Origin: a phage
DNA: 64,000 bases
Sequence record: PZ445429.1
Reading direction: 5' to 3' (one strand)
The position numbers were made by a program, and so were the translations under genes. This document shows, piece after piece, positions 40,757 to 60,568 of the stretch. The notes under the pieces are model-generated. The model did no database searches and was not told the origin of the DNA. It worked only from the letters and a program-made list of their open reading frames with translations. Positions within the stretch are counted from its first letter, which is position 1, and every line of letters begins with the position of its first letter.

Positions 40757-41137
40757 TTGAATTACGCATATCTTATAATACATAACAACGTGGTCTGTGG
40801 TACTCGAGCTGTAGAGATGGGAATCACAGAAGAAAAGTATAACTCTTTGTCTAAATCGGAGCAAGAATACTATGTTGAACAGGCTGCTTGGGAATATGCT
40901 GAGGCTTATCCCGAAGAACGTGAAGGCCGTGTTACTATTGTTGTTACTTTGGGACTGGTGGGCTGTGATACCGAAGTTGATACAGATCTAGAAACACTTG
41001 AAGAATGGGAAGAATTGGATATTGCAGAACAAAATGCTATCATCCGTCAATCTTTCTGGGAAGCAGTAGACTGTCACGTTGTCTTTGAGCCAAATGATAC
41101 AGAAGCTGAAAAACACACTAATTGGATGACTCGATAA
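40757..41137 (+). CDS. hypothetical acidic protein (126 aa)
   Basis: TTG start after RBS GAGAGGAG. Confidence 0.4.
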   Translation: MNYAYLIIHNNVVCGTRAVEMGITEEKYNSLSKSEQEYYVEQAAWEYAEAYPEEREGRVTIVVTLGLVGCDTEVDTDLETLEEWEELDIAEQNAIIRQSFWEAVDCHVVFEPNDTEAEKHTNWMTR

Positions 41138-42000
41138 TGAAAAAAGAATTTAACCTGCACGAAATGTTAGTAGTACCAGACGATGTTAACCTGTTCTTCG
41201 TAGGAGATATTCACGGCTGTAATGATATGCTGGAAGGTGCTCTTAAACTAGCAGGATATAAAGAAAAGCGTGACTATGTTGTCTGTGTTGGCGACTTAAT
41301 TGACCGTGGCCCGCAGAACTTACAGGTTCTAGCCAAATTCTTATATAACCCACGCTTCCGCAGCGTTCGTGGCAACCATGATCAGTTTATGATTGCTGGT
41401 GACTACGCCAACTGGATGTATAATGGTGGAATGTGGGCAATGAATGATCTAGATACCGATACAATTAAAGGTATCGCAGAAGATATGGCAGTTAAAATGC
41501 CAGTATTCATGACTGTACTCCATCGTGGCAAGAAATATGGTGTTGTTCATGGTGGAATACCATTCCGATATAAAGATGCGGGATTAGATGTACATACACC
41601 TAATTGGGACGATATTATTGATCATATCGCTGCAAGTGAAAATGATCCTAATGATCATCCTAGTTATTACATTGAGCCATATCTATGGGATCGTGATGTA
41701 ATTCAGGAAATTGGTTTTCATCTGTCTAAGCAAGGTGCAGAGCACCCCTATTTCCAGCGTTATGCAGGATTTAAAGATGAACTGACTGTGGAAGTGCCAG
41801 AAGTTGAAAGTGTAGATTTCGTATTCCATGGTCACACTGGTGTTCCTTACCCAATTCTGTACAAGAACCGTGTTTATCTCGATACTGGCGGTGTTTTCAA
41901 CGGGCAGTTGACGGTTGCGCAACTTAATGATGAAGCCGGTAAAATCATGACATTTACCACAGATAAAAATGATAGCTGTGGTATACAGAGGATTCTATAA
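41137..42000 (+). CDS. Ser/Thr protein phosphatase (PPP-family metallophosphoesterase)
   Basis: GDIHG ... GDLIDRG ... GNHD motifs. Confidence 0.7.
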   Translation: MKKEFNLHEMLVVPDDVNLFFVGDIHGCNDMLEGALKLAGYKEKRDYVVCVGDLIDRGPQNLQVLAKFLYNPRFRSVRGNHDQFMIAGDYANWMYNGGMWAMNDLDTDTIKGIAEDMAVKMPVFMTVLHRGKKYGVVHGGIPFRYKDAGLDVHTPNWDDIIDHIAASENDPNDHPSYYIEPYLWDRDVIQEIGFHLSKQGAEHPYFQRYAGFKDELTVEVPEVESVDFVFHGHTGVPYPILYKNRVYLDTGGVFNGQLTVAQLNDEAGKIMTFTTDKNDSCGIQRIL

Positions 42001-42368: not shown

Positions 42369-42574
42369 TGAAGAGATTACTACTATTATCAGTACTAATA
42401 CTAGCTGGATGTGATTCCTACGACGATAATGTGAGATTTACTGCAGAAGATACAAAACACTTATGTGATGTAGCTGGAGGTGAGCTAGATTATTCCAGTA
42501 TTCAAATTGGACTCACAAAAGGTATATTCTACGATAGTTATACTATTACATCCACATGTGTAAGGAATAAATAA
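42368..42574 (+). CDS. small lipoprotein (68 aa)
   Basis: signal peptide with lipobox LAGC. Confidence 0.45.
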   Translation: MKRLLLLSVLILAGCDSYDDNVRFTAEDTKHLCDVAGGELDYSSIQIGLTKGIFYDSYTITSTCVRNK

Positions 42575-43164
42575 TGAAAGTTAAATTCTGGAGTGAACTC
42601 CACTTAGACCACCCAGGGATTCTTCGTTTTCGCCCCTGGTTTAAGAACATGAAAGAGCACGATGAGTATATCCTAGATACTTTGTCCAAGCACATTGGCA
42701 AGCGTACAAAACTTGTGCTGCTAGGAGATAGTGCCGTGGGGCGAGAAGGGTTGGCCAAGTTGAAGTCGGTTATCCACAACGTGCCTAACCAACTAATTAT
42801 GGGAAACCACGATGCTGAGCGTCAGGGTCTGCATATTAAAGATCTTGTAGACGTTTATGATGATATTCAGGCTCTAGGTAAGCAAACAGGTGGTGGCAAG
42901 AAGTTTTGGCTGTCACATTGTCCATTGCACGAAGCAGAACTTCGTGGTAGGCTAAACATTCACGGACATGTGCACACTAATTCTGTGCGTGACCCACGTT
43001 ATATCAACGTCTCTTTTGAGATGAGCAAGACTCCTATTCCTCTAGAGGATATTGTGTCTGGCAAATTCACAAGCTATGATAAAGTGGTTAACTGCACTAC
43101 TGGTGAAGTACTCCAAATCGATGAAGATGTGGCAGCGGTATTGAGGGGAGATATCAATGTTTGA
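42574..43164 (+). CDS. calcineurin-like metallophosphoesterase
   Basis: GDSAVG ... GNHD ... HGHVH motifs. Confidence 0.55.
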   Translation: MKVKFWSELHLDHPGILRFRPWFKNMKEHDEYILDTLSKHIGKRTKLVLLGDSAVGREGLAKLKSVIHNVPNQLIMGNHDAERQGLHIKDLVDVYDDIQALGKQTGGGKKFWLSHCPLHEAELRGRLNIHGHVHTNSVRDPRYINVSFEMSKTPIPLEDIVSGKFTSYDKVVNCTTGEVLQIDEDVAAVLRGDINV

Positions 43165-53216: not shown

Positions 53217-54212
53217 TTACTCTGTTTCGGCGCTTTGAGTAAAGGTAGAAATGTCAATGCCTTTTACCATTTCATCGATCATTTCCGCAATGTTGAAACT
53301 CTGTACCATTTCCAACATTGCCGCTTCCATTGCCGCGCCTGCTACCGCTTTAGCTTTCGCATTAGTCGGGGCGTACTGGTCAACCGCTACGCTTAACAGG
53401 TTAGCGATCACTACGCGACCGATCGGCGTATCGATATAACCTTTAATCATAAACGGCGCTTTTTTCGCCGCTACTTTTGTGATTTGAATCAGTGCAATTT
53501 TACCCGCTTCCAATTTAGCAGCGTTTACAACGGCGGATTTATTAGCGGCAACGATAGAAGATACTTTAGACATAATATTTCCTTTATTTTCAGTAGTTTG
53601 CGCATTTGCGCTTGAAGTTTGAGATTGTACAGCCTGTTTTGTTACATTGTCAAGCGGTAAAAGTGTAAATCCAGCGTTTGCAACGTTTGATTCATTCCCA
53701 TACTCTAAATAATCGTTAGGGATCAACATGTTACCGCTAGCGCGTTCAAAACACAATACGCCAGTTGTTTCGATTGCGTCACTATCAGCACCTTTATAAC
53801 TGGATGATAATTCACGCCAGATACTAGATAGTAAATCTTCTACATCGCTGGAATTAATACCATTTACGCGAGTAGCGAAAACCATTTCTTTTTCTTGTAC
53901 ATTGTAACCACGGGCAATATAGCTTTTTTCGTCGTGACCTACAATGATAAAATCAATATCGCTTCCCCGCTGATTTCGCATGATGTGATAGTCACGGTTG
54001 TAAAGCACTAGAACGCGGGTAGGGTCTAGTAATTGTGTGAAATCACTTAAACAATAATGAGTATCATTATTATCTAAAATTTCATCGTGAATCTTTTCGA
54101 TAATAGTAGCCGTATGTTGTACGCTTGCCGCACTACTACCATCTAGCAGGTTGCGCAAACTACCCTTAATAATAGTGGCGTTTGCTGGTACTGCAATTCT
54201 TACAGTAGACAT
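53217..54212 (-). CDS. pre-early cassette protein (331 aa), first gene of minus-strand operon
   Basis: RBS GAGGGGGACAAAGAAATG; palindromic terminator downstream at 53189-53208. Confidence 0.55.
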   Translation of the reverse strand: MSTVRIAVPANATIIKGSLRNLLDGSSAASVQHTATIIEKIHDEILDNNDTHYCLSDFTQLLDPTRVLVLYNRDYHIMRNQRGSDIDFIIVGHDEKSYIARGYNVQEKEMVFATRVNGINSSDVEDLLSSIWRELSSSYKGADSDAIETTGVLCFERASGNMLIPNDYLEYGNESNVANAGFTLLPLDNVTKQAVQSQTSSANAQTTENKGNIMSKVSSIVAANKSAVVNAAKLEAGKIALIQITKVAAKKAPFMIKGYIDTPIGRVVIANLLSVAVDQYAPTNAKAKAVAGAAMEAAMLEMVQSFNIAEMIDEMVKGIDISTFTQSAETE

Positions 54213-54460
54213 TTCTTTGTCCCCCTCGTTAATCGGTGAGTGAATGATATAGATAATTGTTCGCTAGGGGCAAGAAAAAAGAAAAGGTTTTTTATTCCTT
54301 GCCTACTGCCTGTTTTTATGATAGCCGCGCGTTTTCTATTTCTAGCTCTCTGTATGCGTACACAAGGCTTTATTATAATAAGGGTAGCAGCGAGAAAACC
54401 GTTTAGAATGCGTTCTAGGCCGCTTAAATTTGATTGCGGTTGTTACTGCTACCATTCTAC

Positions 54461-55686: not shown

Positions 55687-55938
55687 ATGCAAAACGTTAT
55701 TACCGCGCCGAAAGTAGGTCAATCTGTTTTCATTCCTTTTGTAACTAAAACTGATGAATTAACCGGAAAAGCCGAACGTATCAAAGGTGCGGCGCTTGAT
55801 CCTTTCGATAAAATCGAAGCGGTTTACGCGGAAACGGAACGTAGCAACAACGGCAAGCCGATTTATACCGTCCGTGTTAAATCTGGCGACGTTGTAAAGG
55901 TCATTCAGAAAGATGATAAATGGCAAGCTATCGCCTAA
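55687..55938 (+). CDS. hypothetical protein (83 aa)
   Basis: RBS ACCGGAGTATTAAAAATG. Confidence 0.45.
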   Translation: MQNVITAPKVGQSVFIPFVTKTDELTGKAERIKGAALDPFDKIEAVYAETERSNNGKPIYTVRVKSGDVVKVIQKDDKWQAIA

Positions 55939-56163: not shown

Positions 56164-56580
56164 ATGTCTAACGTTAAAACCGAAAAAACCGCAAAATTTT
56201 CTTGGAACGAAGAAAACACCGAAAAAGCTGTTTCTATGTATTCTGAAATGGTCGCTAAAAGCGGGATTGAATTTGCAAACAGTGACGGCCTGAAAGAAAT
56301 TGCCGCCGCCGTTGGTGCTGCTAGTCCGGTGTCTGTACGTTCTAAATTGACCAGTGCAAAAGCCTACCAGAAAAGCGACAAGCCGCGTAAAGTTGGCGGC
56401 GGGTCTAGTGTCCGTAAAGCTCACTATGTGCGCGTCATTGCTAAACATGCCATTGATAGCGGCATTGTAAAAGACGCTGACGATCTGGCAAGTCTGGAAA
56501 GTGCAAAACTTGAAACGCTGGAAGCCGTGGCGCAATTGTTAGGCGTAGCGGAGGAAGTGAAACAGGCCGCAGGTGAATAA
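56164..56580 (+). CDS. hypothetical protein (138 aa)
   Basis: RBS GGAGTATTAAATTATG; palindrome terminator 56590-56609. Confidence 0.5.
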   Translation: MSNVKTEKTAKFSWNEENTEKAVSMYSEMVAKSGIEFANSDGLKEIAAAVGAASPVSVRSKLTSAKAYQKSDKPRKVGGGSSVRKAHYVRVIAKHAIDSGIVKDADDLASLESAKLETLEAVAQLLGVAEEVKQAAGE

Positions 56581-56609: not shown

Positions 56610-56638
56610 ATAATTTCCCTTTGACCGGAGTTATTAAA

Positions 56639-56866
56639 ATGATTTTCTTTCCTAGTGAAGCGTTTATTTTAGGTTTATTTATAGTTGCCGCTATATTTAT
56701 ATTTAATTACGGCAAATATATAATCTCTATTATCGGCATTAATTCAGCTTATGCCGCTGATATGTTTAAACGTCAAGCTAATAAACAAAAATATCTGGCG
56801 ATTATATTTTTAACGCTGGCTATTAGTTGCGGGTTTAGTTCTAGTCTTATGCCAATTCTAGAATAA
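56639..56866 (+). CDS. small membrane protein (75 aa)
   Basis: ATG 56639 after RBS CCGGAGTTATTAAAATG; two TM helices. Confidence 0.4.
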   Translation: MIFFPSEAFILGLFIVAAIFIFNYGKYIISIIGINSAYAADMFKRQANKQKYLAIIFLTLAISCGFSSSLMPILE

Positions 56867-56974
56867 TATTGCAAATTATAACGCCTTTTAAATTGTCCTC
56901 ACTTCAGGCAAGGCGTTATATTTGGCAATATTGCCAGTATTAATATTTATCCCTTTATAGGAGTTGATTTAGTT

Positions 56975-58639
56975 ATGAATATTTCCGCAGAAAAACAAGC
57001 TCAAATTCTGAAAATGGCCGCAGATTTTAACTTCTACGGTAAGCGTTTACGCGCTACTAAATTGGAAGTTTGCGACGATATTTCAAAAGCTGTTTATGAT
57101 ACGCCGAAACATTCAACCGCAATTTGTGACTGGCTGGAAGCAAATAAGCCAGCGAAACCGAAAGCGGCAAAAGCTGAAAAGGCGATTAAAAATGATGATC
57201 GCCCCGAAGCGGCGGGAATTGTTTCTAGTACCGTTGAACAATGGGAAGTTAAATCCGGTCGCCGTTTTATTCTAACGTCGATTCAAAATAATACTTTCCC
57301 GCATAAAAACTTTTTAGCAAGTCTGGAAAAATTCGCTGAATATTGCGGCGCTGAATTGCTGATTAGTAAATTCATTTATAATAAAAATGGATTCCAGAAC
57401 GGGGAAGGGGCAAACGGTATTAAATACGATCCCGCATTTGATAAATATGTTTGTGATAAAAACGTATTTTTAAATAACCGCCGCTTTGCTTTCATGGCTG
57501 AAATTAACGTTTTACCAACGGCAGATTATCCGCTTTCAGGATTCGCAGAAACCGCCACGGCTTTAAATATCGAAGGTCTGGCAATTGGTCACGCAAAAAT
57601 TACCGCTGAAAGTGTTCCCGCGCTTAAAGGTGAAGTAGTGCGCCGTATGTATTCAACCGGAACGGCTACGCTTAAAAACTACATTCAGCAGAAAGCAGGT
57701 CAAAAAGCTGAGGCTTTACATAATTACGGCGCTTTGCTGGTGGAGTTCGACGACGACGGAGAATTTTATTGCCGCCAGCTTGAAACAATGGATGAAAGCG
57801 GAATGTTCTATGATTTGAATGTTTGCGCTATGCCTACCGGATGTTTTGAAACGTCCGATCATGTTCTAGGCTTGCAATATGGCGATATTCACGCCGAAAA
57901 ACTAGATGATGATTGCGCCGTCGCTTCATGGGCTAGTGAAAACAGCTTGCTTGATATTCTTAAACCGAAATATCAATTTATTCATGATGTGCATGATTTT
58001 ACATCCCGCAATCACCATAACCGCGCAAGTGGTGTATTCCTTGCTAAACAATACGCCGCCGGACGTGATAAAGTTATTGATGATCTTATCGATACGGGTC
58101 GCGTATTAGAGTCTATGGAGCGTGATTTCTCTCAAACAATCATTGTGGAATCTAACCATGATTTAGCTCTTTCACGCTGGCTTGATGATCGTAACGCTAA
58201 CATTAAAGATGATCCCGCAAACGCGGAATTGTATCACCGTCTAAACGCTGCGATTTACGCCGCTATTGCTGAAAAGGATGATACCTTTAACGTGCTAGAT
58301 TACGCCTTGCGGAACGTCGCAGGTTGTGAATTTAACGCTATTTTCCTGACTACTGACCAATCATTTAAAATCGCTGGCATTGAATGCGGCGTACATGGTC
58401 ACAATGGCATTAACGGCAGTCGGGGCAATCCTAAGCAGTTTAAAAAGTTGGGACGCCTTAACACTGGTCACACTCACACGGCTAGCATTTACGGCGGCGT
58501 TTATACCGCTGGCGTTGCTGGTAGTCTCGATATGGGTTACAACGTTGGCGCGTCAAGCTGGACGCAAACGCATTTAATTACATATGCAAACGGTCAACGT
58601 ACCTTGATTGATTTCAAAAATGGCAAATTCTTTGCCTAA
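56975..58639 (+). CDS. A1: A1-like pre-early protein with calcineurin-type metallophosphoesterase/nuclease motifs
   Basis: 554 aa (T5 A1 is ~556 aa); GDIHAEKLD, ESNHDL, GHNG, GHTHTA motifs; followed by A2-like and dmp-like genes. Confidence 0.55.
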   Translation: MNISAEKQAQILKMAADFNFYGKRLRATKLEVCDDISKAVYDTPKHSTAICDWLEANKPAKPKAAKAEKAIKNDDRPEAAGIVSSTVEQWEVKSGRRFILTSIQNNTFPHKNFLASLEKFAEYCGAELLISKFIYNKNGFQNGEGANGIKYDPAFDKYVCDKNVFLNNRRFAFMAEINVLPTADYPLSGFAETATALNIEGLAIGHAKITAESVPALKGEVVRRMYSTGTATLKNYIQQKAGQKAEALHNYGALLVEFDDDGEFYCRQLETMDESGMFYDLNVCAMPTGCFETSDHVLGLQYGDIHAEKLDDDCAVASWASENSLLDILKPKYQFIHDVHDFTSRNHHNRASGVFLAKQYAAGRDKVIDDLIDTGRVLESMERDFSQTIIVESNHDLALSRWLDDRNANIKDDPANAELYHRLNAAIYAAIAEKDDTFNVLDYALRNVAGCEFNAIFLTTDQSFKIAGIECGVHGHNGINGSRGNPKQFKKLGRLNTGHTHTASIYGGVYTAGVAGSLDMGYNVGASSWTQTHLITYANGQRTLIDFKNGKFFA

Positions 58640-58651
58640 TTAAATTTAATC

Positions 58652-58671
58652 AGCGGGGAATATTCCCCGCT
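58652..58671. terminator. palindrome AGCGGGGAATATTCCCCGCT
   Basis: 13 bp after stop of A1-like gene. Confidence 0.5.
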
Positions 58672-58714
58672 TATATTCCCGAAAAAGTTAATTAAATAAT
58701 CTGGAGTTTTAAAC

Positions 58715-59186: not shown

Positions 59187-59921
59187 ATGAATCAAGTTAA
59201 AATGAATATTACCCATAATTTCCCGCATATTTCCCGCGTCATGATTTGGGATCTGGACGGCACAATCATTAATTCTTTCCATCGTGTAGCGCCTTGCTTT
59301 GATGATAACGGGAATTTAAATTTAAATAAGTATTCCCGCGAAGCCTGTAAACATGAATTAATTATGCAGGATTCTTTATTGCCGTTGGTTGAATATATGC
59401 GCCAATGTATGAGTGACGCAAATACATTAAACATTATTTGTACCGCTCGCCTTATGTCTAAAAGCGATTATTTTTATTTACGCAAACAAGGCCTGCGAGG
59501 GCGCGGAAATAGTAATATCCGCGTATTTTCCCGCGATACACTGCATAAATACTTTGAAGCTGATAAGGTTAGCGAAATATACCACAGCAAAGACGCTGTA
59601 TACAAAAGCTATTACTTTGAACTATTTAAACAGCTATATCCGAACGCTGATTTTACGATGATTGATGATCATAAAGGCGTATTATCGGCGGCGGCAAGTG
59701 CTGGGTTCAAAACACTGGACGCCCAAGCCGTTAACGATATCCTATCAATCGGCGTAGCATTGATCGGTGAAACCTTTATTGATGAATCGTTAGATGATGA
59801 TAATGATTATCAATTCCTAGCCGAACGTTTAAAAATGTGTTGGGAAGGTATGACCGAGGAAGAACGCGCGGAATATAGTACCACACCGCAACAATTCATT
59901 GATAAATTAAAAGTTGCATAA
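59187..59921 (+). CDS. dmp: HAD-family 5'-deoxyribonucleotidase (dmp-like)
   Basis: 244 aa; HAD motif I MIWDLDGTIINS; later DD motif. Confidence 0.55.
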   Translation: MNQVKMNITHNFPHISRVMIWDLDGTIINSFHRVAPCFDDNGNLNLNKYSREACKHELIMQDSLLPLVEYMRQCMSDANTLNIICTARLMSKSDYFYLRKQGLRGRGNSNIRVFSRDTLHKYFEADKVSEIYHSKDAVYKSYYFELFKQLYPNADFTMIDDHKGVLSAAASAGFKTLDAQAVNDILSIGVALIGETFIDESLDDDNDYQFLAERLKMCWEGMTEEERAEYSTTPQQFIDKLKVA

Positions 59922-60094: not shown

Positions 60095-60568
60095 TTAACC
60101 GTGGTTTGTGAACTCACCACATACTTTCTCACGTGCTTCCCTTATCGCACTTTCAGCTTCCTCAAGACTCTCGAAATAGGCCGAGATAAAATATTTGCCT
60201 TGGTGTCTACCGCGTGCTCTCCACTTCTTACGAGTGTTATCCCAGTATACTCCCTTAACTCCCGAGATATTGTTCTTAGATAGACGCTGATTCGCTAAGT
60301 TCTGCTCATGTGATGCTTTACGAAGATTATTCTTTCTATTATCTAGTCCCTCACAGTTTTTATGGTCTATGAGAGATTCTCCGGGATCTTCTCCGTAGAT
60401 GCACCACCAAGCTAGGCGATGCACTCTAAACTCTCCGAACTGTGGGTGACGATATATGAGATAACCTTCACTTTCCTTAGTATATCCTATAATAGGCAGG
60501 AATCGCCCCGTATCTGGATCGTATGAAAAACTACCAGCTATTTCATCAGGGATTTTCTTAAATATCAT
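60095..60568 (-). CDS. HNH homing endonuclease
   Basis: HRLAWWCIYGEDPGESLIDHKNCEGLDNRKNNLR ... GVKGVYW, paralogous to the 15403 HNH. Confidence 0.7.
   Translation of the reverse strand: MIFKKIPDEIAGSFSYDPDTGRFLPIIGYTKESEGYLIYRHPQFGEFRVHRLAWWCIYGEDPGESLIDHKNCEGLDNRKNNLRKASHEQNLANQRLSKNNISGVKGVYWDNTRKKWRARGRHQGKYFISAYFESLEEAESAIREAREKVCGEFTNHG

Follow-up and report, generated by a model that had tools for sequence, protein, structure and literature searches.

A predicted metallophosphoesterase domain, and possibly a second, degenerate one, in the A1 protein of a T5-like phage

For decades it has been asked what degrades the chromosome of Escherichia coli in the first minutes of a T5 infection, and the genetic answer is the pre-early gene A1. 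A1 is an essential protein of T5, on which second-step transfer depends. For the breakdown of host DNA in vivo it is both necessary and sufficient; when A1 alone is expressed in E. coli F or DH5alpha, the chromosomal DNA is degraded, the rRNA remaining intact (bioRxiv 10.64898/2026.04.02.716235). In that work (Annor, Ramirez-Chamorro et al., from the Rossier and Boulanger groups; hereafter the 2026 preprint), A1 is called a "predicted metallo-phosphatase" and an in vitro nuclease assay is deferred to future work, and the main text makes no mention of A1 domains, motifs or a tandem arrangement. According to Davison (bioRxiv 10.1101/866236), who proposed a restriction-enzyme model and does not mention a phosphoesterase, no A1 nuclease activity has been reported apart from one preliminary report; the A1 fold is not discussed either in Ramirez-Chamorro 2021 or in the 2026 PNAS daunorubicin paper. 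The A1 gene analyzed here lies in a 64,000-nucleotide stretch of phage DNA (sequence record PZ445429.1), the whole of which is referred to as the window. A previous reading of this gene from its letters alone (the sequence-only reading) had derived a nuclease hypothesis from motifs in the protein; the hypothesis is supported by the data presented below, and its novelty is not, since the nuclease and metallophosphoesterase (MPE) hypothesis for A1 has already been published in the 2026 preprint, of which the present work is in this respect a confirmation. The gene and its start signal are located as follows.

56975..58639, + strand: A1 gene, ortholog of T5 A1 (T5.004), with an ATG start and 554 amino acids (aa) plus stop, from the list of open reading frames (ORFs)
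56959..56963, + strand: AGGAG ribosome-binding site, 11 nucleotides (nt) before the A1 ATG, read from the sequence

The window protein is an ortholog of the product of the T5 pre-early gene A1, as its description as A1-like had anticipated: it shares 90% identity over the full length with T5 A1 (YP_006832.1), every motif being unchanged, and its match to the PHROG 1745 profile ('DNA transfer protein') has an E value of 3.6e-244 and pairs residues 5-553 with positions 5-540 of the 542 in the profile. Megablast with the gene matched 455 phage records, and the closest DNA matches are those of the Salmonella phages INF11 (98.8%), Stitch and EH2-5 (both 98.2%), with the annotations 'A1 protein' or 'DNA transfer protein'; in Stitch a ribosome-binding site is annotated at the same place before A1. 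The gene order A2, small membrane ORF, A1, T5.002-like ORF and dmp is common to the window, Stitch and T5, and it is from this order that the pre-early terminal-repeat setting of A1 is judged, the repeat not being visible within a single window. The identity of A1 together with this shared neighbourhood therefore places the window phage as an Epseptimavirus-like member of Demerecviridae, and the genetics of T5 can be transferred to it directly. The T5 and window A1 proteins belong to the same family, with the same motifs and neighbourhood and with no functional difference to report; H206 of the window protein is Ala in T5 A1. The role in host DNA degradation and second-step transfer that had been stated for A1 in T5-type phages agrees with the 2026 preprint, and the remark that its catalytic activity has not been well defined still holds, the in vitro test having been deferred (10.64898/2026.04.02.716235).

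The motif strings that had been read as a complete calcineurin-type set are all present in the C-terminal half of the protein, namely GDIHAEKLD (aa 303-311, nt 57881-57907), ESNHDL (aa 392-397, nt 58148-58165), GHNG (aa 475-478, nt 58397-58408) and GHTHTA (aa 498-503, nt 58466-58483), and the set is indeed complete, a motif II that had not been listed being found at H337-D338-V-H-D341 (nt 57983-57997). The domain and its motifs are given below, with the conservation of each residue in an alignment of 146 cluster representatives whose median identity to the window A1 is 35%.

57863..58636, + strand: predicted catalytic C-terminal MPE domain, aa 297-554
57881..57892, + strand: motif I, G303-D304-I-H306 (DxH), after strand 297-304; D304 and H306 in 146/146
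57983..57997, + strand: motif II, H337-D338-V-H-D341, after strand 333-337; D338 in 146/146, H337 in 139/146, D341 in 127/146
58148..58162, + strand: motif III, E-S393-N394-H395-D396, after strand 386-391; N394 and H395 in 146/146, S393 in 140/146, D396 in 132/146
58391..58402, + strand: motif IV, V-H474-G-H476; H474 in 146/146, position 476 His in 105 and Asp in 41
58466..58477, + strand: motif V, G498-H499-T-H501 (GHxH), after strand 495-497; H501 in 146/146, position 499 His in 138 and Asp in 8

The motif order of the superfamily, DxH ... GDxxD ... GNH[D/E] ... H ... GHxH, is satisfied by A1, with HDxxD in motif II where GDxxD is usual and SNHD in motif III where GNHD/E is usual. For motif IV, the proposed string GHNG is present, but the invariant His is H474, one residue upstream of it, H476 being conserved in only 105 of the 146 sequences. 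None of the 146 homologs deviates at D304, H306, D338, N394, H395, H474 or H501, and the conserved residues of A1, H499 included, presumably correspond to the seven metal-binding positions and the catalytic histidine of the calcineurin-like fold; given the divergence of these homologs, the invariance of the ligands makes conservation decisive for the MPE assignment. The structure prediction that had been suggested as a check recovered the alpha/beta-sandwich MPE fold: in the AlphaFold2 (AF2) model (mean predicted local distance difference test score, pLDDT, 89.3; predicted template modelling score, pTM, 0.81) each motif stands at the C-terminal end of a beta-strand, the position expected in an MPE fold, and SbcD and Mre11 (structural scores of 9.4 and 9.1) are among the structural matches. 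Both the model and the motif pattern support the interpretation of A1 as a putative calcineurin-like MPE at the superfamily level.

Several searches weigh against this assignment. Pfam gave no match for A1 even at E<=10, Metallophos PF00149 and Metallophos_2 PF12850 included, under conditions in which the window ORF 41122-41997, as a positive control, scores PF00149 at E 3.1e-16; no MPE family of Pfam was found among 44 A1 homologs, the only matches being N-terminal helix-turn-helix (HTH) domains in distant members; phmmer and profile hmmsearch against the PDB sequences found no MPE for A1; Foldseek with the A1 model against the PDB gave nothing at E<=0.001, the best plausible matches being MPEs; and hhalign of the profile of the A1 C-terminal domain, built from the 146-sequence alignment, against 120 SbcD homologs of T5-type phages plus E. 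coli SbcD returned a probability of 0.26%. NCBIfam yielded one spurious short match only, and PADLOC reported nothing for A1. The failure of Pfam, NCBIfam, HMMER against the PDB and hhalign to find an MPE family would suit the view that the motif strings arose by chance in a region that is no metallophosphoesterase. This view is nevertheless extremely improbable, since among 20,000 shuffled versions of the A1 protein not one fits the ordered five-motif regular expression, the ligand residues do not vary in any of the 146 divergent homologs and the same prediction has been published independently; the shuffles, the structural comparison and the invariance of the residues effectively refute it. 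In the six-frame translation of the window, A1 is the sole match to the same expression. A match to 3-dehydroquinate dehydratase (E 0.0022) and matches to designed TPR-like proteins among the PDB sequences were set aside as chance, both covering only the helical insert at aa ~370-445.

The positive-control ORF (41122-41997, + strand) encodes a 292-aa protein with the PPP-type strings GDIHG, GDLIDRG, GNHD and VHGG, and a 197-aa ORF at 42571-43161 (+ strand) has a weak, sub-threshold match to Metallophos_2 (E 0.0022). The phage thus encodes at least two, and possibly three, proteins of the MPE fold, of which A1 alone is invisible to Pfam; hhalign of the A1 C-terminal domain against these two ORFs gave no match.

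The motifs lie in the C-terminal half, as had been stated; the other half is not unrelated to it, residues 88-297 forming a second, degenerate MPE fold in a structural search with that domain alone. Upstream of the catalytic domain, the protein is organized as follows.

56975..57145, + strand: N-terminal three-helix HTH-like domain, aa 1-57 (AF2 helices 5-17, 26-41 and 44-56, pLDDT 82-93)
57146..57244, + strand: Lys/Ala/Pro-rich low-confidence linker, aa 58-90 (pLDDT <50 at residues 63-71)
57245..57862, + strand: degenerate N-terminal MPE-fold domain, aa 91-296, with no metal-ligand motifs

In place of the ligand motifs, the degenerate domain has Q104-N-N-T, Y135-N and P181-T after its strands, and Q104, Y135, P181, P186, T228, G229, G242 and H249 are at least 97% conserved in the 146-homolog alignment. 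As judged from the model, A1 may thus be a tandem of a degenerate and a catalytic MPE fold. A comparison of the middle with the C-terminal domain by hhalign gave a probability of 0.6% and no internal sequence repeat, and a recent tandem duplication as the origin of the two folds was rejected for this lack of detectable similarity. The N-terminus of the window A1 has no Pfam match, and Pfam domains (HTH_23, CENP-B_N and HTH_38) are matched at residues ~6-46 of four distant homologs (P0070, P0071, P0073 and P0104); aa 1-57 are a variable module of the family, replaced or missing in many homologs, and the homologs outside Demerecviridae align with A1 only from about residue 93.

In the structural search with the full-length A1, the highest score was obtained with the 3'-5' exonuclease DP1 of PolD (12.2), followed by Vps29 (10.6), the B-subunit of Pol delta, YfcE and MJ0936 (10.4 each) and LpxH (10.0), with SbcD and Mre11 next. 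With the domain 88-297 alone, the score of DP1 was 8.3, and those of SbcD (7.0, 130 aligned residues, compared with 163 for the full-length protein), Mre11 (7.3, 133 compared with 156), YfcE (8.2, 123 compared with 152) and LpxH (7.7, 122 compared with 155) were likewise lower. Because the full-length protein gives higher scores and longer alignments with the nuclease-type and active MPEs than the domain 88-297 alone, the motif-bearing C-terminal domain must, as far as the model can be trusted, also be an MPE fold, and one nearer to the nucleases than the degenerate domain is; some of the full-length matches, such as Vps29, SapH and PP5, may stem from the middle domain.

DP1 and the B-subunits of the eukaryotic polymerases combine one phosphodiesterase domain with an OB fold and are bound to a polymerase catalytic subunit. 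The sequence identity of A1 to DP1 of PolD (PDB 5ihe), a Mre11-like 3'-5' proofreading exonuclease, and to the inactive B-subunits of Pol alpha, delta and epsilon is 9-15%. In A1, by contrast, the domain that precedes the catalytic MPE is another MPE fold and not an OB fold, and no polymerase gene adjoins A1 in the window or in the T5-like phages, although a family A polymerase gene is found 1-3 kb away from some distant homologs. Vps29, MJ0936 and YfcE show no sequence relationship to A1 (8-13% identity), and, unlike Vps29 and the minimal MPEs, the degenerate domain of A1 is fused to an intact MPE that is predicted to be active and has invariant residues of its own (Q104, Y135, P181, P186 and H249).

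The motifs had also been taken as the signature of Mre11/SbcD-type nucleases, and of this only the calcineurin-like superfamily part is retained, the Pfam, hhalign and architecture tests specific to Mre11/SbcD having failed. PF00149 or PF12850 is found in most of the SbcD homologs of T5-type phages (the D13-like 'exonuclease subunit 1'), whereas A1 has no Pfam Metallophos match, and against E. coli SbcD alone hhalign found a local match to motif V only (probability 48%). A1 differs further from Mre11/SbcD in its motifs II (HDxxD) and III (SNHD) and in its end at residue 554, about 50 residues past motif V and within the last core beta-strands, with no room for the C-terminal capping and Rad50/SbcC-binding region; the conserved core of the A1 family ends at about residue 553. 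No SbcC/Rad50-type ATPase gene adjoins A1, its neighbours being A2, an 81-aa ORF, a 130-aa ORF and dmp, and in the T5-like Providencia phage PR1 a true SbcD-like gene, followed by 'exonuclease subunit 2', is found elsewhere in the genome. Moreover, the second MPE domain of A1 is in the same chain, whereas Mre11 and SbcD pair by homodimerization. From the failed profile, capping-domain and partner-gene tests, A1 is not a member of Mre11/SbcD as far as sequence comparison reaches; it is predicted to act like an MPE nuclease and yet to stand outside that family.

The most likely mechanism, with a probability of roughly 0.7, is that A1 acts on DNA directly, its C-terminal MPE domain being a metal-dependent DNase. 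A1 would be built from the HTH-like module (aa 1-57) on a flexible linker, the degenerate MPE fold and an intact binuclear MPE domain, in which two metal ions, probably Mn2+ or Mg2+, would be bound by D304 and H306 (motif I), D338 (II), N394 (III), H474 (IV), and H499 and H501 (V), with H395 as the catalytic histidine. The C-terminal domain would itself be the DNase and would hydrolyse the host chromosomal DNA in the first minutes after first-step transfer; the product of the neighbouring dmp gene, acting downstream of DNA breakdown, would convert the resulting nucleotides to nucleosides. Other inactive MPE folds, among them Vps29 and the polymerase B-subunits, suggest that the degenerate domain would most likely have no part in catalysis and act as a scaffold or a binding surface, with DNA, A2 or RNA polymerase as candidate partners. 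That DNA is the direct substrate we infer in part from the chromosome degradation seen in E. coli when A1 alone is expressed and in part from the homologs in DNA-metabolism and replication modules, described below, which support a DNA-directed role, and the four A1-related proteins with N-terminal HTH domains are counted as further support. On the opposite side, close structural neighbours include the non-nucleases YfcE, MJ0936, LpxH and Vps29, a literature search for in vitro A1 DNase activity found no report of purified A1 cutting DNA, and the escape of unmodified T5 DNA from a non-specific DNase would have to be explained (10.64898/2026.04.02.716235).

The main rival supposes that A1 is an active MPE for which DNA is not the direct substrate, a nucleotide, a cyclic or dinucleotide signal or a phosphoprotein being hydrolysed instead, and that an activated or de-repressed host nuclease destroys the DNA. 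The activation of a host nuclease is named as an alternative in the 2026 preprint, where A1 is also described to interact with the host RNA polymerase and to affect transcription (10.64898/2026.04.02.716235), so that A1 has activities other than that of a nuclease. Nevertheless, the top structural match is an exonuclease (DP1), SbcD and Mre11 fit the catalytic domain better than the degenerate one, homologs are embedded in the replication modules of unrelated phage families, and some relatives carry HTH domains. The strain DH5alpha is endA1 recA1, and endonuclease I and RecA are therefore dispensable for A1-induced degradation. The degradation of DNA by A1 alone in this strain (10.64898/2026.04.02.716235) is a further argument against indirect action, which on this evidence appears unlikely. 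A lower probability still, that of a rather improbable explanation, is assigned to the model of Davison, in which A1, alone or with A2, would be a site-specific restriction-like endonuclease with sites in the host DNA but not in the first-step-transfer DNA, RecBCD finishing the degradation (bioRxiv 10.1101/866236). This model would explain the survival of the first-step-transfer DNA of T5, and the N-terminal HTH-like module could in principle give a sequence preference; that module, however, is variable, most distant homologs lacking it or having another sequence in its place, whereas the two-MPE core is constant, and the catalytic fold is predicted to be a binuclear MPE. To our knowledge, the folds of restriction endonucleases are such as PD-(D/E)xK, HNH and GIY-YIG, and not the binuclear MPE.

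At a clustering level of 50% identity, the A1 family numbers at least 1,969 clusters under a cutoff of E<=1e-3 and 854 under one of E<=1e-30, and tblastn located it in 1,133 phage records, among them Caulobacter phage phiCbK, the jumbo Brevundimonas phage Marchewka, the Autographiviridae Rhizobium phage RHph_I40 and phages of Flavobacterium and Vibrio; megabase-scale contigs of Alphaproteobacteria carry homologs as well. This wide spread outside the T5-like phages extends the statement that A1 is 'predominantly associated' with Demerecviridae (10.64898/2026.04.02.716235). The homologs are flanked by a DnaB-like helicase, ligase and PolA in RHph_I40, by methyltransferases and PolA in phiCbK, by an SNF2 or DnaB helicase, PolA and RNase T in the chromosomes of Rhizobium and Pannonibacter, and by ClpP, PhoH, beta-clamp and ligase in metagenomic phages, an exonuclease being also among the replication-module neighbours. 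The usual position of the two-domain core in replication modules argues for a DNA-directed ancestral function.

A tentative reading, in which several elements share a single joint estimate somewhat short of even odds, would see the A1 core as a single-chain 'pseudo-dimer' of MPE folds that defines a large, previously unclassified and Pfam-invisible family of phage nucleases, with members in T5-like siphophages, a T7-like podophage, the large Caulobacter phage phiCbK, a jumbo phage of Brevundimonas, phages of Flavobacterium and what appear to be integrated elements of alphaproteobacterial chromosomes, mostly next to helicase and polymerase genes; the dead domain would form the second half of a DNA-binding cleft, comparable to the second protomer of Mre11/SbcD, or would dock A2 or RNA polymerase, and T5 would have specialised an older, replication-associated nuclease for the destruction of the host chromosome and for second-step transfer. 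A literature search for tandem MPE proteins returned nothing relevant, and the only parts of this analysis that may be new are the degenerate MPE fold predicted inside A1, next to an active one, and the breadth of the family, that is, a two-domain core common well outside Demerecviridae and usually in replication modules.

The homologs from outside Demerecviridae offer simpler systems for study. In A1 itself, the residue map (D304, H306, D338, N394, H395, H474, H499 and H501) provides a basis for catalytic-dead mutants, which would separate the DNase role of A1 from its roles in second-step transfer and in transcription shut-off.

In RHph_I40 (L009 / L050 6948-9736), the A1 homolog and the DnaB-like helicase gene overlap at the stop codon of the latter, and the annotation of the first 26 kb shown includes no primase; such a tight coupling to the helicase hints at a replication-linked role of the A1 core. 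In two unrelated metagenomic phages (L002 9623-10297 and L003 7405-7986), an A1 homolog of ~45% identity has a ClpP-like protease gene adjoining it and PhoH within ~3 kb, one contig of the pair being 153 kb long with T4-type baseplate genes and the other 80 kb with Prim-Pol and beta-clamp. Homologs of 36-42% identity occur in contigs of 0.4-5 Mb from Alphaproteobacteria (L030, L047, L016, L022 and others), including Rhizobium rosettiformans, Pannonibacter, Lichenicola and Acidisoma, with an SNF2 or DnaB-like helicase, a family A polymerase and RNase T in the flanks, which suggests prophage-like elements with a putative host-DNA-degrading nuclease.

The genes around A1 in the window are the following.

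56164..56580, + strand: A2 gene, 138 aa, counterpart of CPT_Stitch6 'A2 protein' and, by gene order, of T5.006
56621..56866, + strand: small ORF, 81 aa, with hydrophobic stretches, at the position of Stitch5 and of the T5.005 'membrane protein'
59187..59921, + strand: dmp, deoxynucleoside-5'-monophosphatase, 244 aa, matching CPT_Stitch1 and T5.001 in position and length, with a DLDGT motif in the translation

A2, the DNA-binding partner needed with A1 for second-step transfer, gave no match in the Pfam and PADLOC searches. The counterpart of the small ORF 56621-56866 in Stitch is labelled 'A1 protein precursor', a label that looks wrong given its position, which is that of the T5.005 'membrane protein'. 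Only 75 bp (58640-58714) separate A1 from the next ORF, the 130-aa homolog of T5.002/Stitch2 that lies between A1 and dmp, and the T5.003/Stitch3 gene found in T5 and Stitch is absent from this interval; the 2026 preprint counts gene 003 as one of the least conserved in the pre-early region (10.64898/2026.04.02.716235), with which its absence here is in agreement. Beyond dmp, where the left ends of the Stitch and T5 genomes are reached after ~110-125 bp, the window continues with a homing-endonuclease-like ORF (60095-60568, - strand) with HNH_3 plus AP2 domains, and it therefore appears to come from a permuted assembly in which the terminal repeat has been collapsed, as in the ~113-kb records of INF11 and KKP 3953. 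Two other ORFs of the pre-early region match only domains of unknown function, that at 53220-54263 (- strand) DUF7566 (E 1.5e-136) and that at 55687-55938 (+ strand) DUF7177 (E 5.6e-44).

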